Assembly: GCA_001781125.1 (NCBI GenBank)
Contig: MFKT01000018.1
Span: 4,595-28,594 of the forward strand
Length of the DNA stretch: 24,000 nucleotides
Direction of reading: 5' to 3'
Source: Candidatus Kaiserbacteria bacterium RIFCSPHIGHO2_01_FULL_53_29
Lineage (GTDB): Bacteria > Patescibacteriota > Minisyncoccia > Phycocordibacterales > UBA2100
Positions within the stretch are counted from its first letter, which is position 1; the number at the start of each line of letters is the position of its first letter. The translations under genes and the position numbers were made by a program. This document shows positions 4,051 to 17,733 of the stretch, in pieces. The notes beneath the pieces are model-generated. The model saw only the letters and a list, made by a program, of their open reading frames with translations. It ran no database searches and had not been told where the DNA came from.

Positions 4051-4959
4051 ATGTTCATCATCACACACAGAAATATATTCTTCTGCGTTACTGCCGCGAT
4101 TACAGCGCTCGGTATTGTTTCCGTAGTCGTGTTCGGGTTGAAGCCGAGCCTTGAATTTACAGGTGGAACCCTTGTGCAAGTCAGCTACCCCCAAGAGCGA
4201 CCGGCGCCGCAGCGTATGGAGGAGGCGCTGAGCGGAGTGGGCATTCACGGCTATTCAATTCGCGAAGCAGGACAGAAAGATTACATCATACGCGCACCCA
4301 ACCTTAGCGAATTGCAGCGCTCCAGTATTGCAGAGGTCGTGTCAGGTGGCGAAGAGTATCGGGGAGAGATCACGCAGCTTACCGAAGTTGGACCAACCAT
4401 CGGGCTTGAATTGCGCAACAAATCACTCATCGCGCTCGGGCTTGTATTACTCTGCATCCTCCTTTTTATCGCATTCGCCTTTCGCAAAGTCTCGAAGCCC
4501 ATCTCGTCATGGATATATGGGCTTATTGCACTCGTCACCTTGATACACGACATTATCGTGCCTGTCGGATTTTTCGCGCTTCTCGGGTATCTCACGGGGG
4601 CCCAGATAGACACCCTCTTCGTGACGGCCATTCTTACCATTCTCGGCTTCTCCATCCACGACACCATCGTCGTGTTCGACCGTACGCGCGAGAACTTGCG
4701 CGTCAATCATGAGCGCAACAAGAAAGAGGACTTTGCGGATACGGCAGGGAGGAGCCTCGGACAAACCTTCGTGCGTTCCGTCAACACCTCGCTCACTGTA
4801 CTCATCACGCTCCTCGTCCTCTTCTTCATCGGTCCGGCTTCTACAAAAGATTTCGCGCTCACACTCCTGGTCGGTATCATTGCGGGTACCTATTCCTCCA
4901 TATTCTTGGCCACGCCCCTCTTGGTTCTTGTCGAACAATACCGTAGGAAGCGGAAGTAG
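4051..4959 (+). CDS. secF: Protein translocase subunit SecF
   Basis: Begins directly after secD. Motifs LEFTGGTLVQV and HDTIVVFDRTREN plus six predicted hydrophobic helices; 302 aa. Confidence 0.9.
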   Translation: MFIITHRNIFFCVTAAITALGIVSVVVFGLKPSLEFTGGTLVQVSYPQERPAPQRMEEALSGVGIHGYSIREAGQKDYIIRAPNLSELQRSSIAEVVSGGEEYRGEITQLTEVGPTIGLELRNKSLIALGLVLLCILLFIAFAFRKVSKPISSWIYGLIALVTLIHDIIVPVGFFALLGYLTGAQIDTLFVTAILTILGFSIHDTIVVFDRTRENLRVNHERNKKEDFADTAGRSLGQTFVRSVNTSLTVLITLLVLFFIGPASTKDFALTLLVGIIAGTYSSIFLATPLLVLVEQYRRKRK

Positions 4960-5052: not shown

Positions 5053-5784
5053 ATGGAGCTGAAAACGGTCGGCATCATAGGATACGGCGCTTTCGGCGCG
5101 CTCGCCCATACCCTCATCAAACGTTTCGCGCCATCGGTTACTGTACGCGTACACTCGGAACATCATCCGTCTGATGGCAAACAGTTTTTCTCACTTGAGG
5201 AAACTGCGCAAAGCGACGCGGTTGTGTTTGCCGTTCCGATACATGCGTATGAAGAAGCATTGCGTGAGATAGTGCCGCTGATGCGGCAAGATTCCGTCAT
5301 CGTCGACGTTGCGACCGTAAAGGTTCACACCGTGCAGATGCTGAAGCAGTATGCGCGGGGCAGGCGCTACATCGCGACGCACCCGGTCTGGGGCCCCGAG
5401 AGCTACGAGAAGTGCGCAGGCGATATCCGCGGGTTCCGTATCGTTATGACAGATGGCACACTGAGCATCGAGGAGTACAACGCGCTCACAGCATTTTTGC
5501 GCGGACTCGGATTCGATGTCGTCGAAATGTCAGCCGAGAGCCACGATAAGTACATTGCTGAAACCCTATTTCTTACCCACTTCATCGCGCAAATCTTTGC
5601 GCGAGCCGGCATTAAGCGCACAAAAGTGGATACGGTCTCGTTTGCCAGTCTCATGAATGCCATAGAAGGTGTACAACACGATCAGGAACTTTTCAAAGAC
5701 GTGTATAAGTATAATCCGTACTGTAAGGAAGTTTTGAAGCGCTTCGGAATTGGGGAATCTGAAGTGCAAAAACTTCTGCTATGA
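5053..5784 (+). CDS. tyrA: Prephenate (or arogenate) dehydrogenase
   Basis: N-terminal dinucleotide fold VGIIGYGAFG, then VDVATVK and ATHPVWGPE (HPMFGP-like), typical of the TyrA family. There is a 4-nt overlap with the downstream dehydratase gene. Confidence 0.8.
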   Translation: MELKTVGIIGYGAFGALAHTLIKRFAPSVTVRVHSEHHPSDGKQFFSLEETAQSDAVVFAVPIHAYEEALREIVPLMRQDSVIVDVATVKVHTVQMLKQYARGRRYIATHPVWGPESYEKCAGDIRGFRIVMTDGTLSIEEYNALTAFLRGLGFDVVEMSAESHDKYIAETLFLTHFIAQIFARAGIKRTKVDTVSFASLMNAIEGVQHDQELFKDVYKYNPYCKEVLKRFGIGESEVQKLLL

Positions 5785-6338
5785 GAATCGGTATTTCAGG
5801 AGCCAAGGGTAGCTTCTCGGAAGAGGCTGCGCGAAAATACGCAAGCAAGAATGGGCTTGAAGGATATACGTTGGACTATCTCATTTCGGTCGAGAACGTG
5901 TTGACTGCCCTCGAGAAGGGGACGATCGACCTCGGGATCTTTCCGATAGAGAATCTGACCGGCGGCGCAGTTGCAGAAACAGTCGTGGCAATGCAAAAGC
6001 ACAAATTTCAGAAAAAAAATACGTTCACCATCGATATACGTCAGAACCTTCTTGCCCTCAAAACGACGAAGCGGGAGGAAATTATTACGATCACTTCGCA
6101 TGAGCAAGCGCTGAAGCAATGCGGTGCCTATCTGAAGGCGAAATGGCCAAACGCAAAACTTCAGGAATACGAGGATACTGCTAAGGCTGCAGAAGATCTC
6201 GCGGCAGGGAAGTTGCCGCCATCGACCGCCGTCATCGCCTCGCGTACCGCAGCTGAAGTTTACGGCCTCCAAATTCTTGAGGAATCGATACAGGATCAAA
6301 AAGAAAATCTCACGAGCTTTATTGCTGCGACAAAGTAG
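5781..6338 (+). CDS. pheA: Prephenate dehydratase, catalytic (PDT) domain only; no C-terminal ACT regulatory domain
   Basis: ISGAKGSFSEEAA, GIFPIENLTGGAV, TSHEQALKQCGAYL and ENLTSFI match the PDT domain. The ORF stops at 185 aa, where canonical PheA proteins continue with an ~80-aa ACT domain. Confidence 0.8.
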   Translation: MRIGISGAKGSFSEEAARKYASKNGLEGYTLDYLISVENVLTALEKGTIDLGIFPIENLTGGAVAETVVAMQKHKFQKKNTFTIDIRQNLLALKTTKREEIITITSHEQALKQCGAYLKAKWPNAKLQEYEDTAKAAEDLAAGKLPPSTAVIASRTAAEVYGLQILEESIQDQKENLTSFIAATK

Positions 6339-6341
6339 TCT

Positions 6342-6683
6342 TTATTTTTTCTCGAGAGTCTCGGAGTGATCGAGAATTACTTCAAAGATTTTTCGCGCCG
6401 CTTCTTCGGATATACCCAGATCTTTGGCGACTGCGATTCTTGAACTCATCACCTCATTTCTTCGTTTCTCGTCACGCACTTCAAGGCCTTTTTCTTGCTT
6501 AAGTTTTCCGATCTCAACGACGGATTTAAGGCGCTCTGCAAGCGCCAGAAGAAGTTCTTTATCTGCCGCATCGATCTCGGCGCGCAATCTCTCCAGCTCG
6601 CTTGACCCCGTTAGAGAACTACCTTTCGGGGGTGTGGTTGAGGAATCATCATTCTCTAACGGGGTTGACATAGAGCCCATCAT
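6342..6683 (-). CDS. Monofunctional chorismate mutase (AroQ-class, all-helical) with a Ser/Thr-rich N-terminal extension
   Basis: ELERLRAEIDAADKELLLALAERLKSVVEIGKLKQEKGLEVRDEKRRNEV matches the helix-1/helix-2 signature (R...D..ll.Ll.eR........K....l...d..Re) of AroQ chorismate mutases. It is convergent with pheA, with 3 nt between the stop codons. Confidence 0.8.
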   Translation of the reverse strand: MMGSMSTPLENDDSSTTPPKGSSLTGSSELERLRAEIDAADKELLLALAERLKSVVEIGKLKQEKGLEVRDEKRRNEVMSSRIAVAKDLGISEEAARKIFEVILDHSETLEKK

Positions 6684-6693
6684 ACACTACAAT
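6665..6693 (+). promoter_or_regulatory. Sigma70-type promoter TTGACA-17 nt-TACAAT driving the trp T-box leader
   Basis: TTGACA at 6665-6670, an exact 17-nt spacer, then TACAAT at 6688-6693. It lies inside the first codons of the divergent chorismate mutase gene. Confidence 0.65.
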
Positions 6694-6699
6694 ACCCCT

Positions 6700-6901
6700 T
6701 AGTTAAAGCCTTTGATTCGGGGGATGGGCCCGAATCGTCTATGGACAAGGCGATCTCTGCATGAGTGGAGATCCGGATTCCTCCGTAAAAAGGATAACTG
6801 ATATCTTACGAGAGCCAGTGAGTTATAAATTAAGGTGGTATCGCGGAAACCCGCCCTTATTGCACAAGGTATGATTGTGCAGTGAGGGCGGCTTTCATTT
6901 T
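6700..6901 (+). promoter_or_regulatory. T-box riboswitch leader, candidate specifier UGG (tRNA-Trp)
   Basis: T-box core AAGGUGGUAUCGCGG lies at 6832-6846. The antiterminator is AAGG/CCUU plus the 7-nt bulge UGGUAUC plus GCGG/CCGC. A competing terminator lies at 6851-6901. A Stem I-like helix spans 6708-6751, with UGG-A at 6742-6745 in its 3' internal loop. Stem II spans 6752-6773, an F-box-like CCGUAA lies at 6783-6788, and Stem III spans 6795-6826. Confidence 0.85.
6851..6901 (+). terminator. Intrinsic terminator of the trp T-box leader
   Basis: CCGCCCU (6851-6857) pairs with AGGGCGG (6885-6891). The inner helix is UGCACAA (6861-6867) / UUGUGCA (6875-6881). The tail is CUUUCAUUUU. Confidence 0.8.
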
Positions 6902-6952
6902 GCGATGAGCAAAATGATGTCGCGACGAGCACGATGCGACATAAACTAATCT

Positions 6953-8299
6953 ATGCAATTACCGAAAATAAAAATAGGGCAGAAGCCCACCTACATCAAA
7001 ATCGCGGAGGATGTGGACTTTTTCGGGTTGTTCCAAAAGATCGAACGGGAGTTTGAGACCTGTTTTGTTTTCGAATCTCTCGGTGAAGAAGGGAAATTTT
7101 CCCGCTATTCGATCATTGGGTTTGATCCTACGCATCTTATTTCTGCACGCGGCGACGACCTCATTGTCGATGGCCAGAGCTTCGCGGTGGAAAATCCCTA
7201 TGGCGCACTGCGCAAAATGATGCCACCTCGCGCGATAGGGAAAGAGTATGCGGGTGGCCTTGTGGGATACCTCGGATACGATGCCGTGCGGTATTTCGAG
7301 CCGTCGCTCCACATTAAAACACACGAGCACTTTCCGGCGTTCATGTTTGGTGTCTATACCGACGGCCTCGTTCTCGACAAGCTCACCAACGAGCTCTTCT
7401 ACTTTTACTGCGATACCGATAAGAGCGAGCTTTTGAGGAAAATCATGCACACAACCTACACGAAAGAGCCGCTTACGGTAACGTACATAAAAGACGGCAT
7501 GAGCAAGAAAGAACACGCGACCGCTGTCGAGAGTGTGAAAGAGCTCATCAGAGCAGGCAATACGTTCCAGTGTGAGGTCGGGTTCAAGACGGAATACAAA
7601 GTTTCTGGCGATACGCTGCAAATATATGAGAAGTTGCGCACCGTGAATCCGTCACCCTTTATGTACTATCTCAAATTTGGCACAAAAAAGGTGATAGGGG
7701 CCTCTCCCGAACTTTTGTTCAGCATTCGCGACGGTGAAATGACGACGCGGCCGCTTGCCGGTACCATCAGGAGAGGAAAAGACGACGCAGAAGACCAGCA
7801 GCTTGCGCGCGAACTGGTGAACGACCCGAAGGAGCGTGCGGAGCACACCATGCTCGTCGATCTCCACCGCAACGACATTGGACGCGTCGCGCAATTCGGT
7901 ACGGTCAAGGTCCGCGATCTGATGAATATAAAGAAATTCAGCCACGTCCAGCATATTTCGAGCGAGGTCGTGGGGCTTATTCGCCCCGAAGAAGATATGT
8001 TCTCGGGTCTTGCGGCGAACTTCCCCGCAGGTACCGTTTCCGGCGCGCCGAAGATCGAAACGATAAAGATCATCGACCGTAACGAGCCCGGGCCCAGGGG
8101 TCCGTATGGCGGCGGGGTGGGGCACTTCGGTTTCAATGGCGATTGTACGTTCGCTCTCGCGATACGGTCCCTATTCATTTCTGATACGCAAGCCTTTGCG
8201 CAGACCTCCGGCGGCATTGTCTACGATTCACAGCCGGAAAAGGAATACGAGGAAGTTACCAACAAGCTCGCTGCTATGAAGAAAGTACTTGATGTATGA
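6953..8299 (+). CDS. trpE: Anthranilate synthase component I
   Basis: Full-length TrpE-like, 448 aa: FESLGEEGKFSRYS (Trp feedback region), GASPELLF, RPLAGTIRRG, EHTMLVDLHRND, FPAGTVSGAPK, GPYGGGVG. Confidence 0.95.
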   Translation: MQLPKIKIGQKPTYIKIAEDVDFFGLFQKIEREFETCFVFESLGEEGKFSRYSIIGFDPTHLISARGDDLIVDGQSFAVENPYGALRKMMPPRAIGKEYAGGLVGYLGYDAVRYFEPSLHIKTHEHFPAFMFGVYTDGLVLDKLTNELFYFYCDTDKSELLRKIMHTTYTKEPLTVTYIKDGMSKKEHATAVESVKELIRAGNTFQCEVGFKTEYKVSGDTLQIYEKLRTVNPSPFMYYLKFGTKKVIGASPELLFSIRDGEMTTRPLAGTIRRGKDDAEDQQLARELVNDPKERAEHTMLVDLHRNDIGRVAQFGTVKVRDLMNIKKFSHVQHISSEVVGLIRPEEDMFSGLAANFPAGTVSGAPKIETIKIIDRNEPGPRGPYGGGVGHFGFNGDCTFALAIRSLFISDTQAFAQTSGGIVYDSQPEKEYEEVTNKLAAMKKVLDV

Positions 8300-8892
8300 A
8301 AGTCCTGATCCTCGACAATTACGATTCTTTCACGTTCAATCTCTACCAGTATATAGGGGAGATCTTGACCGCCGGAGGTCAGACCTTTACGCTCGATGTG
8401 GTGCGCAATGATGCGATTTCGATCGATGAGATCAGGAAGCGCACGTACGACAGGATCGTGATTTCTCCAGGGCCCGGTGAACCTTCCGACAGAGCGTATT
8501 TTGGCGTGTGTGCGGACGTCTTGACCATTATTGGCAGGCAGACCCCCGTTCTTGCGGTATGCTTGGGGTTACAGGGTATGGCGCACTATTTTGGCGGAAA
8601 AGTCGTCCGTGCGGAGCTTCCGATGCATGGTAAAGCAAGCACCGTAACGCATGACGGAAAAGGGGTTTTTGAGGGCTTGCCACAGAATCTCAGCGTCATG
8701 CGATATCACTCGCTCATCGCGGAAAAGGAATCACTTCCCGCATGTCTTTCCATCACGGCCACATCCAATGACACCCAGGAGATCATGGGCTTGCGGCATA
8801 CCGAATATCCCATAGAAGGCATCCAGTTCCATCCGGAATCGTTTGCTACGGAGGGCGGAAAGGAGCTCCTGAAAAATTTTCTTCACGTATGA
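8296..8892 (+). CDS. trpG: Anthranilate synthase component II (glutamine amidotransferase)
   Basis: Class-I GATase: ILDNYDSFTFNL, ISPGPG, CLGLQ (catalytic Cys), IQFHPES. ATGA overlaps on both sides. Confidence 0.9.
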   Translation: MKVLILDNYDSFTFNLYQYIGEILTAGGQTFTLDVVRNDAISIDEIRKRTYDRIVISPGPGEPSDRAYFGVCADVLTIIGRQTPVLAVCLGLQGMAHYFGGKVVRAELPMHGKASTVTHDGKGVFEGLPQNLSVMRYHSLIAEKESLPACLSITATSNDTQEIMGLRHTEYPIEGIQFHPESFATEGGKELLKNFLHV

Positions 8893-9902
8893 ATTCCGTC
8901 GAACTTCTTAACGCATTGATCGAGGGGAAAGACCTGAACGCGTCAGACACGCAGGAGTTTTTTAATGCGGTCGTGCGCGGGGAGATCCCTCCCGCGCAGA
9001 TCGCCGGCATCCTCGTGGCGCTTCGCATCAAAGGGGAGAGTGTTGAAGAGATTGAAGGCTTGGTGCGGGCGATGCGTTCCCACATGGTGAAGGTGGATGC
9101 CCCCGGTGCGATCGATATCGTTGGCACGGGCGGCGGGGAAGTCGATCCGTTCAATATCTCAACTGCGGCGGCCCTTATCGCCACTGGTGCAGGGGCTAAG
9201 CTTGCAAAGCACGGCAATCGGGCGGCGTCAAGCAAGTGCGGTAGCGCTGATGTGCTGGAAGCACTCGGTGTGAATATTCAAGTCTCTGCTGAGCAAGCGT
9301 CGAATGTTTTCAAGAACGCGGGGATCGTTTTTCTATTCGCTCCTACGTACCACCCGGCGACGAAAAACGTGGTTGTCGTACGTAAGGAGTTAAAGATCCG
9401 CACCATCTTCAATGTGCTTGGACCGTTCGCGAACCCCGCGGGAGCGAGGCGTCAGCTCGTCGGCGTTCCAAATCCAGATGTTGCGAAAAAGATGATGGAA
9501 GTGGCGAAGAATCTCGACTACGAGCGCCTCATCATCGTTACGTCAGGGGGAATGGATGAGATAAGTATTGTCGGGAAAACACAGGCACTGGAACTCTCGG
9601 AAGGAAAGATGCGCGAATTCGAGATAGATCCGAGCACGTTCGGTTTCAGCGGAAAGAAAGAAGATCTCGCCAGCGGCGATGCACAGACGAATGCAGCGAC
9701 CATTCGCGACATTCTCAAAGGAGAAAAAGGTCCCAAGCGCGATGTTGTGGTATTGAACGCTGCATACGGTCTCTATGTGGCCGGGGTAGCCAAGACACCC
9801 GAGGAGGGAATAAAAGAGGCTGAAGAATCAATCGACAGCGGCAAGGCGGCGGCGGCGCTCGAAGCCCTGATACGCGAAACGCAGAAGTACAAACCCGTAT
9901 GA
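8889..9902 (+). CDS. trpD: Anthranilate phosphoribosyltransferase
   Basis: DIVGTGGGEVDPFNISTAAALIA, KHGNRAASSKCGSADVLEALG and FNVLGPFANPA are TrpD hallmarks; 337 aa. Confidence 0.95.
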   Translation: MNSVELLNALIEGKDLNASDTQEFFNAVVRGEIPPAQIAGILVALRIKGESVEEIEGLVRAMRSHMVKVDAPGAIDIVGTGGGEVDPFNISTAAALIATGAGAKLAKHGNRAASSKCGSADVLEALGVNIQVSAEQASNVFKNAGIVFLFAPTYHPATKNVVVVRKELKIRTIFNVLGPFANPAGARRQLVGVPNPDVAKKMMEVAKNLDYERLIIVTSGGMDEISIVGKTQALELSEGKMREFEIDPSTFGFSGKKEDLASGDAQTNAATIRDILKGEKGPKRDVVVLNAAYGLYVAGVAKTPEEGIKEAEESIDSGKAAAALEALIRETQKYKPV

Positions 9903-11722
9903 AAGTCCTAAAAGTCATTCCCATTAAAAAACCTCTTGACGCCGAAGTAGCCATTCCCGGTTCTAAAAGTTACACCAACAGAGCGCTCCTCATGGCCGCA
10001 CTTTCGGGAAATACAGTGCGCATCAAAAATCCACTCATAAGTGAAGACACTGAGGCGATGATCGGCTGCCTGCGCGAGCTCGGTATTGCCTGTACGCTCG
10101 AAGACGGGCTCGTTACCGTTGCGGGCGGCATCGATTTGGTCAGTGACCGCGAATACAATCTCGATGCGAATCTCTCTGGGACCACGATCAGATTTATCTC
10201 GGCACTCTCGGCTCTAGTTCCCGGGACAAAGACCATTCATGGTAAGCCTCGTCTCAATGAGCGCCCGATCTACGATCTTGTAGATGCATTGCGGCAGCTC
10301 GGAGCCTCGATCGAGTACCTTGACCGGGAAGGCTACCCGCCTATTCGTATCTCGTCTTCGGAGCTTTCTGCGGGAGTAGTCAAAATGAAAGGAGAAGTAA
10401 GTAGTCAATTCCTGTCGGCACTTCTTATGGTGGCGCCCCGCATCGGCGACGTTGAAATACATATTGAGGGTGAACAGATATCAAAACCCTATGTAGACAT
10501 GACCATCGACGCTATGAAGCAATGTGGTGTTACCGTTGTCAACGATCAGTATGCGAAATATCGAATTACGGCAGGAGCAAAATACAAAATGACCGAGTAC
10601 GTGGTAGAGGGTGATGTTTCAAGCGCGTCCTACTTTGCAGCTATCGCGGCTTTGACCGGATCGCGTATTACGCTCAAGAATATGAATCCGCAGTCAGTAC
10701 AGGCGGATATGGGATTTCTTACCATCCTCGCCGGTATGGGGAACGAGATCACGAATGGGGAGAATGAGATAACGATACAGGGCCGTGGCGTAAGGGCGGT
10801 TGATGTCGACATGCGGGGTTGTCCCGATCAGGTACAGACGCTCGCCGTTCTCTCCGCATTCGTGTCGGGCATTACGTCGATCTCCGGCGTGCGTTCGCTA
10901 CGAGTAAAAGAGACGGAACGTGTCGCGGCGCTTGAGCGGGAACTTGCGAAGATGGGCGTACAGGCAGAATCGACCCCCGACACGCTCACCATCCATGGGC
11001 GTGCGCCGAGGCCCGCGGTGATCGACACCTACTGGGATCATCGGATGGCGATGGCGTTTACGGTTGCGGGGACGAAACTGGAGGGCATGGAGATCAGGAA
11101 TCCGGACGTCGTCGGGAAGACGTTCCCCGACTTTTGGGAGAAACTCAATTCGATCGGCATCAAGACGGAAATTTCCGAGCGGGAACCAAATATTGTGCTA
11201 ATAGGGATGCGCGGAAGCGGGAAGACAACGATCGCAAAAATGCTTTCCACCCGTCTGCAGCGCACCAGCATCGAGATAGACGACGAAGTCGTAAAGAAAA
11301 CAGGAATGAGCATCGCCGATATCTTTGCGCATCACGGAGCGGAATATTTCAGGAACAAGGAGTCCGAAGTAGTGGATGAAATGCTGGCAAAAGAGAATAC
11401 CATCATCTCTACCGGAGGCGGGACCATATTGCGACCCCACAACATCGAACAGCTCAAATACAACGCCATCTGTTTCTGGCTGCGGGCTCCCGTCGAAGCC
11501 CTGGTAGAGAGAATGGAGAGTGATCCCTCATCGTCGCAGCAGCGGCCCACTCTCACGGACAAGGAGACACCCGAGGAAGAAACTGCGGAAGTATTGCGAC
11601 AGCGGGAGGCGTTGTATCAAAAAGCCGCGGATGAGGTCGTGGATACCCAGAATAAGAACCCGGGGGGGATCGTCGAAGAGGTATTACTCAAATTGAAAGC
11701 GCGCGGAATTAACGTACAATAA
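9899..11722 (+). CDS. aroA-aroK: Fusion protein: EPSP synthase (residues ~1-425) plus shikimate kinase (residues ~431-607)
   Basis: The N-terminal part has [47 protein letters not shown] and DHRMAMAF (AroA). From nt ~11189 the sequence [14 protein letters not shown] (Walker A), STGGG and RPTL matches AroK. It is one uninterrupted 607-codon frame. Confidence 0.9.
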
Positions 11723-11729
11723 AGTGATT

Positions 11730-12812
11730 ATGGCAGGGAACAGCTTCGGACAATTATTTCGGATAACGACCTTCGGCGAATCGCACGGCGGTGCTGTCGG
11801 CGTTGTGCTCGATGGTTGCCCGCCGGGTATTGAGATTACCGAGGAAGAGATCCAGAAGCAACTCGACCGGCGTCGACCCGGACAGAGCAAAATAACGACG
11901 CCGCGCAAGGAGGCCGACCGCATCAAGATACTTTCGGGATACTTCGAGGGCAAAACGACCGGTACGCCGATGCTCCTCATCGCTTACAACGAAGAATACG
12001 AATCCGACGATTACCTCGAGCTCAAAGAGGCCTACCGGCCCTCACATGCCGACTTTACGTATGAGGCCAAGTACGGTTTCCGCGATTGGCGGGGAAGTGG
12101 TCGCGCTTCTGCGCGCGAGACCCTCGCGCGCGTCGCCGCCGCCGCAGTCGCCCAAAAATACCTAAAGGAGAAACTCGGTATCGAGATCTTGAGCTATGTC
12201 GATCAAGTCGGTGATATTAAAGCCGACATTGATTTTAATACTGTGACACCAGAACAGATAGAATCCAATATCATCCGCTGTCCGGATCAGAGTGCAGCGG
12301 AGAAAATGATAGCCCTCGTCGAGAAGGTGAAAGCCGAGGGGGATTCCATCGGCGGCGTTATTCAGGGTGTCATCCGCAACGTCCCTGCAGGCCTCGGTGA
12401 GCCGGTCTTCGACAAAATTCCCGCCGATCTTGCAAAAGCGATGATGAGTATCAATGCGGTGAAGGGATTCGAGATCGGTTCGGGCTTCGCGGGCGTGTCG
12501 CAACGGGGAAGCGAACACAACGACCCCTTTGAGATACGCGATGGGGAGATCCGCACCAAGACCAACAACGCCGGAGGCACATACGGCGGTATTTCTAGCG
12601 GCGAAACTATCCACTTCCGCGTCGCGTTCAAGCCGGTTTCAACGATTAAAAAAGAGCAAGATACGGTGAATCGTAAGAAAGAGGCCGTCAAACTCTCTGC
12701 GGCGGGCCGTCACGACCCATGCGTCCTCCCCCGCGCCGTCCCGATTGTGGACGCGATGAGTGCTCTGGTAATCATGGATCACTATCTCCGCAACAAAGCA
12801 CAGAACGGTTGA
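11730..12812 (+). CDS. aroC: Chorismate synthase
   Basis: [35 protein letters not shown]-like [12 protein letters not shown] and GGISSGE. I prefer ATG 11730 over the upstream in-frame GTG 11724. Confidence 0.95.
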
Positions 12813-15706: not shown

Positions 15707-16482
15707 AGCATTGCTTGTTTCAATTCATGTATTTTTGCAAGGGGATCGGATGATTTCAAGATGGAGGTTCCTACAAGAATACCCCGCGCCCCGGCTTTGC
15801 GCACTCTCCGCACATCCTCGGCGTTCTCGATGCCCGACTCGCTTATCATCGGTATTTTTTTTGGAATGAGGTGGGTGAGCGTCTCGGTGACAGCCAAGTC
15901 AACTTGGAGCGTCTGCAAATCTCGGTTGTTGATCCCGATCACTTCCGAGCCGGCCGCAAGAGCTTTCGCGACTTCGATCTGATTGTGCACCTCAACAAGA
16001 CTGTTCATGTGGAGCTTTTTTCCTAGGTCGATGAGATGTATAAGCTCGTCTACCTTCAATATGTTTGCAATAAGAAGAAATGCATCGGCTCCACTAAGGA
16101 GCGTCTCGTACACCTGATATTCGTCAACAATAAAATCCTTACGCAATATTGCCTGCGGCACTCGCGCTTTGACTCGTTTGAGCAATTCGATGTCGCCGCC
16201 AAAATATGGCTTGTCGGTCAGGACCGAAATCACATCCGCCGAGCTTTTTGCGTAGAGGTCGGCAATATCAAGCGGAGGCTCCGTAATGAGCATACCCTCC
16301 GACGGGGATTTGGGTTTTATCTCGGCGATAAGGACACTCCCGCGATCAAAGAGCTTTCTGAATGATCGTCGTTCAGTTTTGAAGCTTTCGGCCTCCTTTT
16401 GCAGCACCTCAAGCGGTCGAGCCGCCTTGATGGCTTCGATTTCAAGGCGCTTTTTTGCCACTATTTCATCCAAAATAGTCAT
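15703..16482 (-). CDS. trpC: Indole-3-glycerol phosphate synthase
   Basis: IAEIKPKSPS, ISVLTD..YFGG, LRKDFI, IGINNRDL and ESGI motifs; 259 aa. Confidence 0.95.
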   Translation of the reverse strand: MTILDEIVAKKRLEIEAIKAARPLEVLQKEAESFKTERRSFRKLFDRGSVLIAEIKPKSPSEGMLITEPPLDIADLYAKSSADVISVLTDKPYFGGDIELLKRVKARVPQAILRKDFIVDEYQVYETLLSGADAFLLIANILKVDELIHLIDLGKKLHMNSLVEVHNQIEVAKALAAGSEVIGINNRDLQTLQVDLAVTETLTHLIPKKIPMISESGIENAEDVRRVRKAGARGILVGTSILKSSDPLAKIHELKQAML

Positions 16483-16502
16483 ATCCGTAGTATACTCGCC
16501 AC

Positions 16503-17150
16503 ATGACCAGAGTGAAAATCTGCGGCATCAAGAGCGCCGAAGACGCACAAGCCGTAGCAGCGTTTGGCGCCGATGAGCTTGGATTCCACGTCAAATTGAA
16601 CGGCGGGCGCTCGCCACTCGAAGCGGATGTGGCAAAAGCACTGGTCGGTGCACTTCCAAAGAGTTCGGCGGGTGTTGTTGTGACAAGTCTCACCGATGCG
16701 AAAGAATTGATCGAAATTGCGCAAGCGACCGGAGCTTCAACGCTGCAGCTGTATGGCGATGCGACGCCGGAGACGATACGGGAGTTTAAGAAGGCGTTGC
16801 CAGAAGTAAAAATTTGGAAAGTGTTGAACGTATCCGACGAGAACTCAATTGAGAAAGCGAAAGAATACGAAGACGCGGCGGATGCAATCGCTCTCGATAC
16901 GCTCAACAAAGCAACGGGTGTGCGCGGGGGGACGGGGAAGACCCACGATTGGAGTATCAGCAAAAGAATAGTCGAATCAATCTCAATTCCCGTCATTCTC
17001 GCGGGGGGCCTCAATCCCGATAATATCGCGGAAGCCATCCGCACCGTTCGCCCATATGGTGTAGATGTAAACTCCGGCGTTTCCAACCCCGACGGCTCAA
17101 AAGACCTCGAAAAAGTCAAACTATTTATCGAGCGCGCCAGAAATCTATAG
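16503..17150 (+). CDS. trpF: Phosphoribosylanthranilate isomerase
   Basis: MTRVKICGI, LQLYGD, GGTGKTHDW, ILAGGLNPDN and GVDVNSG; 215 aa. It is divergent from trpC with only a 20-nt spacer. Confidence 0.9.
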   Translation: MTRVKICGIKSAEDAQAVAAFGADELGFHVKLNGGRSPLEADVAKALVGALPKSSAGVVVTSLTDAKELIEIAQATGASTLQLYGDATPETIREFKKALPEVKIWKVLNVSDENSIEKAKEYEDAADAIALDTLNKATGVRGGTGKTHDWSISKRIVESISIPVILAGGLNPDNIAEAIRTVRPYGVDVNSGVSNPDGSKDLEKVKLFIERARNL

Positions 17151-17241
17151 TCAGTGGCGAACTTGCAGAGAGAGAGTTCGTGGTATTCATTGCTCGGACA
17201 AGAGAGTCCGAAATTTCCCGTTAACAGCGAGGGTGAAAGCC

Positions 17242-17733
17242 ATGGCACGCAAAGACAGAGATGCCCGCCTGCAGGCGGAGGCTACCGAAATTGCCCAAAA
17301 TTTGAACGGCTGGGCAATTCACAACGACATTCTCAATGCGGGCGAGGTCATCGTCTACGATGCCCGAGTCGAGAAGATCTCGGTTGTCCGGCCAGCCGAG
17401 AGACCGATGGCGACCGAGGAATTCTCGATCAAAGGCCGGAAGGATCGGGGCGTCGAGTTCGTACGCCCTGCCCGAATGACCTCCGACCAGGTTCAGCGGT
17501 TGTTGAGTAAATTGACACTCAGCTCCCGCGAATTCATGCAGGAATTGCTGGTTGAAAAGCGCAACAATCCTACGAACATCAACGAGTTCGGGAACGCTAA
17601 TGATCATCTTGGACATTTCCGAGGCGTCGTCAACGGAGTATTCCGTAACTGCACGATCGGTGGAAAGCACTACCGTTTGGCGACCGATCGGCGCGCGATC
17701 CAACTTTGGGAGGTGAAGCAGATCAAAAAATGA
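17242..17733 (+). CDS. Hypothetical protein (~163 aa), no family recognised
   Basis: Coding-like RNY/G-first codon pattern. GAGGG (17229-17233) lies 8 nt upstream of ATG 17242; the listed ORF start, GTG 17233, falls inside that RBS. The antisense 160-aa ORF is less coding-like. Confidence 0.55.
   Translation: MARKDRDARLQAEATEIAQNLNGWAIHNDILNAGEVIVYDARVEKISVVRPAERPMATEEFSIKGRKDRGVEFVRPARMTSDQVQRLLSKLTLSSREFMQELLVEKRNNPTNINEFGNANDHLGHFRGVVNGVFRNCTIGGKHYRLATDRRAIQLWEVKQIKK

Follow-up and report, generated by a model that had tools for sequence, protein, structure and literature searches.

In 2015, Sherwood et al. reportedly described T-boxes with an "ultrashort" Stem I, the examples being the ileS T-boxes of Nocardia farcinica and Mycobacterium tuberculosis (Class III). 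Four T-box classes have been defined (PMC10482949), and we take the class definitions used below from that paper and from PMC7583486. Class III T-boxes have a short Stem I without the elbow-binding platform (IDTM), present the specifier in an apical loop of 5-6 nt, and require Stem II (PMC10482949); a specifier in the hairpin loop of Stem I is thus a Class III arrangement (PMC10482949; TBDB preprint). Class III and IV mostly regulate translation initiation (PMC10482949) and, given that "mostly", a translational platform is typical of Class III without strictly defining it. Transcriptional T-boxes generally require the elbow-binding IDTM (PMC7583486), so a terminator-coupled version without one is unexpected. 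Reviews argue that the elbow platform gives transcriptional T-boxes fast tRNA capture before polymerase meets the terminator, and they tie short Stem I's to slower translational switches in Actinobacteria. The K-turn is also thought to be necessary for positioning Stem II (PMC7583486). In TBDB, truncated Stem I's are handled by a model derived from ileS T-boxes of Actinobacteria; the de novo genome search with this model covered that phylum only (TBDB preprint). Within the literature that we searched (one searchable library), no paper linked T-boxes to Patescibacteria, the candidate phyla radiation (CPR) or Parcubacteria.

The locus described here lies in a 24,000-nucleotide stretch of Candidatus Kaiserbacteria DNA, the whole of which we call the window. 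From its sequence, a Trp-specific T-box with a short Stem I had been predicted ahead of a trp/aro operon, and this headline proved right overall. The decoding site, however, differs from the one originally proposed.

Results

A T-box below the Rfam gathering score precedes a trp/aro operon

The sequence at 6665-6901 (+) forms a genuine T-box leader. In a permissive Rfam search its alignment with RF00230 spans the full model (positions 1-219; 44 bits, E = 1.3e-8), and its fold has a z-score of -6.1 against shuffles, which places the T-box as a whole far beyond chance. At the gathering threshold (93 bits for RF00230), Rfam gave no match anywhere in the window, whose two T-boxes were recovered only by the permissive search. 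The comparison with RF00230, which the original prediction had proposed as its check, therefore gave a split answer: a significant E-value but a bit score under the gathering score. The low score arises because some 85 Stem I positions of the model are missing, replaced by 30 nt in the leader. Since the match runs end to end at E = 1.3e-8, the T-box is real, and its sub-threshold score directly mirrors the truncated Stem I.

The promoter is present as predicted (Table 1), and a TTGACA-17-TAGAAT arrangement is kept in three related leaders (L068, L117 and L120; L numbers denote collected loci). Downstream, Pfam matches and overlapping ORF ends, with overlapping stop and start codons between genes, confirm the predicted operon of trpE, trpG and trpD followed by an aroA-aroK fusion and aroC. 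The same gene order is found in L117, L119, L120, L128 and L130. Upstream of the operon lie a divergent gene for chorismate mutase and genes for prephenate dehydratase and prephenate dehydrogenase (Pfam). The prephenate dehydratase (5781-6338, +; 185 aa) is reduced to the catalytic PDT domain; the regulatory ACT domain normally found at the C-terminus is missing. The window holds trpE, G, D, C, B and A, but no PRAI domain was found anywhere in it. At the site expected for trpF, overlapping the trpC start, is a 260-aa ORF (16466-17248, -) for which Pfam gave no match up to E = 10; it may be a non-orthologous replacement for trpF.

Table 1. Features of the leader and of the operon that it precedes (window coordinates)
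Feature	Positions	Strand	Basis
Sigma-70-type promoter, TTGACA (6665-6670), 17-nt spacer, TACAAT (6688-6693)	6665-6693	+	11/12 consensus matches
Minimal Stem I	6708-6751	+	Predicted fold, covariation, family table
Stem I basal helix, GCC/GGC	6708-6710 / 6749-6751	+	Fold, covariation
Stem I linker, UUU	6711-6713	+	Fold, covariation
Stem I GA paired with UC	6714-6715 / 6735-6736	+	Fold, covariation
Stem I helix P1, UUCGGG/CCCGAA	6716-6721 / 6729-6734	+	Fold, covariation
Stem I 7-nt apical loop, GGAUGGG, atop 8-bp helix	6722-6728	+	Predicted fold
Predicted specifier UGG (6725-6727) with purine G6728, in apical loop	6725-6728	+	Invariance in family
Side hairpin GUC-UAUG-GAC, three-way junction at base of Stem I	6737-6746	+	Covariation
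Stem II, GAUCUC/GAGAUC, topped by family-conserved YUGC...AGUR	6752-6773	+	6/6 pairs change on both sides
Stem IIA, CGG/CCG	6774-6776 / 6783-6785	+	Covariation
IIB pseudoknot, UCCU/AGGA	6779-6782 / 6791-6794	+	100% paired; UA<->CG and CG<->UA exchanges
F-box-like CCGUAA	6783-6788	+	F-box as defined in PMC7583486
Stem III, ACUG/CAGU	6797-6819	+	3/4 pairs change on both sides; RF00230 alignment
Antiterminator with T-box bulge	6832-6858	+	RF00230 alignment, covariation, -7.0 kcal/mol
Antiterminator A1	6832-6835 / 6855-6858	+	
Antiterminator 7-nt bulge, UGGUAUC	6836-6842	+	
Antiterminator A2	6843-6846 / 6851-6854	+	
Intrinsic terminator, 17-bp stem (6851-6891) and CUUUCAUUUU	6851-6901	+	-30.1 kcal/mol
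Operon trpE-trpG-trpD-aroA/aroK-aroC	6953-12812	+	Pfam, overlapping ORF ends
trpE	6953-8299	+	Pfam
trpG	8296-8892	+	Pfam
trpD	8889-9902	+	Pfam
aroA-aroK (EPSP-synthase/shikimate-kinase) fusion	9899-11722	+	Pfam
aroC (chorismate synthase)	11724-12812	+	Pfam

A family of related leaders supports the whole fold

Relatives of TrpE at 70-75% identity are numerous and nearly all labelled as Patescibacteria (Kaiserbacteria, Pacebacteria, Parcubacteria, Daviesbacteria and Levybacteria). From genome, metagenome and contig look-ups we assembled 13 distinct homologous trpE leaders as a comparison sample, to which the second T-box of the window was added. T-boxes are absent from L001-L003, which hold the closest TrpE relatives in the genome collection, and a covariance model built from nine leaders retrieved no further members from 560 kb of collected loci.

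Across nine related leaders, 93.9% of the cells in the complete fold are paired, compared with 36-57% in slid controls. Changes on both sides were seen in 18 pairs; shuffles gave 8.2 +/- 2.0, and none of 500 reached the observed value. The support extends to the domain between Stem I and the antiterminator (Table 1), where invariant G, C, G and U columns mark the YUGC...AGUR element atop Stem II. This element is what the family conserves in place of the canonical Stem II S-turn (AGUA/GAA), a feature that Class III T-boxes rely on and that was not recognizable in the alignment.

None of 12 related leaders attained the Rfam gathering score, the family maximum being 44 bits, whereas the canonical trp T-boxes of L034 and L021 pass it with 120-133 bits on RF00230. 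Because the threshold misses every family member that we examined, amino-acid regulation is probably under-annotated in genomes of the CPR. In the same run, L028 (a Peptococcaceae MAG) and L037 (Terrisporobacter), both with canonical long-Stem-I trp T-boxes, also fell below the gathering score; as they fail while L034 and L021 pass, the threshold under-calls T-boxes more generally.

The invariant UGG lies in the apical loop of Stem I

Throughout the family, Stem I follows one order, namely a basal helix, a 3-nt linker, GA, a P1 helix of 5-6 bp and then UGG plus a purine. P1 is fully paired in 12 of the 14 leaders and keeps four of its five pairs in the other two. UGG followed by a purine (G or A) is invariant in all 13 homologous trpE leaders, where it sits 0-1 nt 5' of the P1 3' strand. 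It is the sole invariant triplet of the segment, the two bases before it varying among GA, GU, GC, AU and UU. In the window, the four bases concerned (6725-6728) each have an unpaired probability of 1.0. The second T-box of the window is collinear with these leaders and differs in this column at the middle codon base only (UCG), a single-base change of the kind expected of a specifier column.

The column can also be placed against canonical systems. In relatives that bear a K-turn, the sequence runs codon-R-(x)-CCGG-N-GA-basal helix, collinear with Class I trp T-boxes, which read UGG-A-CCGC-U-GA in L023, L028 and L037 and UGG-C-CCCG-G-GA in L021. From this invariance and collinearity we assign the predicted specifier of the window to the UGG of the apical loop with its 3' purine, a Trp codon that matches the trp genes downstream. 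The original prediction was thus right about the identity of the codon (UGG, Trp) and wrong about its position, which it had put at 6742-6744, treating as an empty cap the very 7-nt loop that holds the invariant UGG and purine. Alternative frames were considered and rejected, as UUG varies among trpE leaders (AUG in the window, CUG in L068) and GGG/GGA are likewise variable.

The codon occupies a terminal loop in the window and in L110, L121, L123, L126 and L127, while in the other family leaders a distal hairpin, short at about 4-8 bp, stands above it. None of the 14 leaders showed an AG bulge or distal loop (AGAGA/UGxRA-type element), and the Stem I of the window is without the elbow-binding platform (IDTM). 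In this regard the earlier reading of a shortened Stem I without the distal platform holds (30 nt against about 85 model positions), as does its comparison with the actinobacterial ileS T-boxes.

A covarying side hairpin interrupts the base of Stem I

In the window, the 5' strand at this base is intact (GCC-UUU-GA), whereas the usual K-turn strand on the 3' side is interrupted, reading CCCGAA-UC-[hairpin]-AA-GGC. The inserted side hairpin is 100% paired across leaders, with two of its three pairs changed on both sides; counterparts are GUCC-GAA-GGAC in L128, GCCC-CAAC-GGGC in L068 and CCGCG...CGCGG in the second T-box of the window. Pairing at the GA position covaries as well, in Watson-Crick fashion (GA:UC, AA:UU, GU:AU). 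The family is split accordingly: tandem GA/GA goes with the absence of a hairpin between P1 and GA, and the side hairpin occurs only in, and in all, leaders in which the GA position is Watson-Crick paired. A textbook K-turn is retained in seven relatives, while L068 and L119 are without the G1b that a K-turn needs. For Stem I, the original prediction was correct in part, since its helices GCCUU/AAGGC and GAUUCGGG/CCCGAAUC do appear in the minimum-free-energy fold, but the Stem I fold as a whole was wrong.

A three-way junction at a K-turn site recalls the k-junction of the TPP riboswitch, in which a third helix lies on the non-bulged strand (PMC10573300). This reading was rejected for the window, where the inserted hairpin separates P1 from the RA dinucleotide and GA can pair with UC by Watson-Crick pairing. 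L130, in contrast, keeps GA/GA and has its hairpin added after GA, which fits the published definition of a k-junction.

The expression platform is an intrinsic terminator

The T-box core AAGGUGGUAUCGCGG (6832-6846) and the antiterminator helices A1 and A2 with their bulge are exactly as originally described, both in the sequence and in the alignment with RF00230. The antiterminator pairs as AAGG-UGGUAUC-GCGG...CCGC-CCUU, its helices being conserved in nine leaders. The strong terminator likewise excludes the antiterminator, as had been stated: the two share 6851-6858, making them mutually exclusive, and the difference in predicted stability is large (-30.1 vs -7.0 kcal/mol). A terminator followed by a U-tract overlaps the antiterminator in all 14 family members, with energies of about -25 to -33 kcal/mol from a crude hairpin scan, the window value being from a separate fold. 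In these 14, the start codon lies outside the hairpin, 10-147 nt past it; in the window, trpE starts about 60 nt beyond the end of the stem. The expression platform is therefore transcription termination and not Shine-Dalgarno sequestration.

The bulge of the window, UGGUAUC, departs from the consensus UGGNACC, an AUC variant that it shares with L120 and L126, and it reads UGGU where most relatives have UGGC. In T-boxes, the N of UGGN is complementary to the discriminator base of the cognate tRNA; a search for tRNA genes in the window and 19 related loci did not yield a tRNA-Trp gene. Two further details concern the region past the terminator. The U-tract can pair with a downstream A-run (UUUUGC-GAUGA-GCAAAA, 6897-6913), and a similar sequence is seen in L128. 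In addition, an upstream ORF of 14 codons (6905-6949, +), none of them for Trp, stops 3 nt short of the trpE start codon.

A model of tRNA-Trp-dependent antitermination and its alternatives

The elements of the leader and their covariation, the invariant apical UGG, the competition between terminator and antiterminator and the content of the operon are all consistent with tRNA-Trp-dependent antitermination through the codon in the apical loop, assisted by the Stem II domain, which we consider the most likely mode of action. The steps that involve tRNA and its charging, and the part played by Stem II, are inferred and would run as follows. Transcription would begin a few bases past the TACAAT box. 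With the 17-bp terminator as the default fold, RNA polymerase would halt some 60 nt short of trpE. Under Trp limitation, uncharged tRNA-Trp, through its anticodon CCA, would pair with the UGG of the 7-nt loop. The codon-anticodon helix would presumably be clamped by the Stem II and IIA/B pseudoknot domain (6752-6794), by analogy with Class III ileS, and the free NCCA 3' end of the tRNA would pair with the UGGU of the bulge (6836-6839). This second contact would stabilize the otherwise weak antiterminator, block the terminator and permit read-through into trpE-trpG-trpD-aroA/aroK-aroC. Charging of tRNA-Trp would in this way gate the first enzymes of the Trp branch plus the last three steps to chorismate.

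The original prediction had instead envisaged a basal and an upper helix separated by a 3' internal loop, GUCUAUGGAC, that presents UGG 6742-6744 as the specifier. A UGG followed by A is indeed present at 6742-6745, with U6742 and G6743 predicted to be unpaired, and a purine A after the specifier codon is the commonest T-box pattern. By our estimate, however, a 10-nt stretch contains UGG by chance in roughly 1 of 8 cases, and the proposed loop is not a loop: the minimum-free-energy fold pairs its GUC with GAC, this hairpin covaries in relatives, and the unpaired probability of G6744 and A6745 is only 0.18. Nor is the triplet conserved, as its counterpart is missing in L068 (GCCCCAACGGGC), L119 and L071, and the entire segment is absent from seven K-turn-type leaders that still control trpE (among them L117, L120, L110, L123, L126 and L127). 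Its place would, moreover, be 3' of the K-turn site, while specifiers are found above the K-turn, both in the family sequences and in known T-boxes (PMC7583486). We regard decoding at 6742-6744 as scarcely credible.

Two other accounts were considered. If the leader were a decaying, nonfunctional relic whose Stem I had been deleted, the terminator would be constitutive or otherwise controlled; the loss of the short distal hairpin still present in L128 and L068, its closest relatives, the sub-threshold Rfam score and the nonconsensus bulge could be read in this sense. Yet terminal-loop specifiers recur independently in five relatives, the bulge variant is found in two, all helices are intact and covarying, and the UGG is retained. 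A constitutive terminator of -30 kcal/mol would also be deleterious ahead of an essential biosynthetic operon, and we think decay very unlikely. The precedent of the actinobacterial T-boxes with a short Stem I, most of which act on translation initiation, would suggest a translational switch in which the downstream hairpin serves as sequestrator, but the U-tract behind this hairpin in all 14 leaders and the position of every start codon beyond rather than within it make this highly improbable.

Discussion

Relation to known T-box classes

Judged by its sequence, the leader of the window appears Class III-like and its relatives Class IV-like, both differing from these classes in being Trp-specific, terminator-coupled and found in Patescibacteria. 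With the Class III ileS T-boxes of N. farcinica and M. tuberculosis, the window shares a short Stem I without IDTM, a predicted specifier with its 3' purine in the apical loop, a Stem II followed by a IIA/B pseudoknot with F-box, and the same discriminator of T-box bulge and A1/A2 helices. Unlike these, it would decode Trp (UGG) rather than Ile, precedes a trp/aro biosynthetic operon, belongs to Patescibacteria instead of Actinobacteria and acts through an intrinsic terminator without Shine-Dalgarno sequestration. It also has a loop of 7 rather than 5-6 nt, a hairpin-interrupted K-turn strand and no recognizable AGUA/GAA S-turn.

Several relatives (L117, L120, L128, L130, L068 and L119) and the second T-box of the window instead place the predicted specifier in a side bulge flanked by P1 and a short distal hairpin, again without IDTM, much as in Class IV, represented by the ileS T-box of Actinomyces odontolyticus with its intermediate Stem I (PMC10482949). 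The window, having lost the distal hairpin, departs from that class, and does so too in specificity, host phylum and terminator. With the Class I Trp T-boxes of L034 (Kurthia) and L021 (Dehalococcoidia) it has in common the UGG, the spacing from codon to K-turn GA, the logic of discriminator and terminator, and trpE as first gene. Those T-boxes, from Firmicutes and Chloroflexi, however, have a long Stem I, complete with AG bulge and distal loop, and reach 120-133 bits, as opposed to at most 44 bits in the family described here.

The core T-box mechanism is not new. We tentatively suggest, as a possibility that falls somewhat short of an even chance, that these leaders represent an uncatalogued co-transcriptional T-box class across Patescibacteria (Parcubacteria and Microgenomates), which would read tRNA through the codon (in an apical loop or side bulge) and the Stem II domain only, without contact to the tRNA elbow, and in which a three-way junction replaces the K-turn in a subset that includes the window. 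Were this the case, neither the IDTM nor a standard K-turn would be needed for kinetic, terminator-based control. The leader contradicts the stated generalization that transcriptional T-boxes need an IDTM, and a covarying family that joins a short decoder to strong terminators offers a natural test of the kinetic argument put forward in the reviews. The family also bears on whether a Stem II-containing T-box works without a standard K-turn, and it extends T-box regulation to the CPR.

Other leaders in the window and in related genomes

Some other Patescibacteria trp operons are without a T-box (L124, 5880-6000; L001, about 4130-4313; L114, 4589-5987). The leaders of L124 and L001 are short and contain CCCUCC...GGAGGG hairpins and a U-tract. 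A gene of the Trp_repressor family (PF01371) lies just upstream in L124 and L114, and trpS is immediately upstream of trpE in L114. The arrangement suggests another kind of control for these operons, possibly exerted by a protein.

The second T-box of the window (22300->22081, -; RF00230 E 7.7e-5) shares the reduced Stem I and the side hairpin with the first, and has its own promoter (TTGACA-17-TACAGT, 22336-22308, -) and the bulge UGGC. Taken by positional homology, its specifier column would be UCG (Ser); moved by 1 nt, it would be UUC (Phe). Downstream of this T-box come an orphan ORF of 95 aa (21988->21701, -), with a good ribosome-binding site, and then a terminator (21671-21649). No family match and only two homologs were found for this ORF; an orphan ORF in the window matches exactly a protein of a Candidatus Kaiserbacteria MAG.

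The early shikimate genes of the window sit behind a Phe/Tyr-rich leader peptide. Here, the segment 21440-21628 (-; z-score -5.5), ahead of aroQ-aroE-DAHP synthase-aroB, looks like a classical leader-peptide attenuator, with a TTGACA-16-TATTAT promoter and a 24-codon ORF, MQTISSRFFGFFYGLSFESSSALL, at 21591->21517. In this segment, GAGAGUUCGU and ACGAGCUCUC can form an antiterminator, which competes with a terminator composed of ACGAGCUCUC-GAAA-GGGAGCUCGU and then UUGCUUUU.
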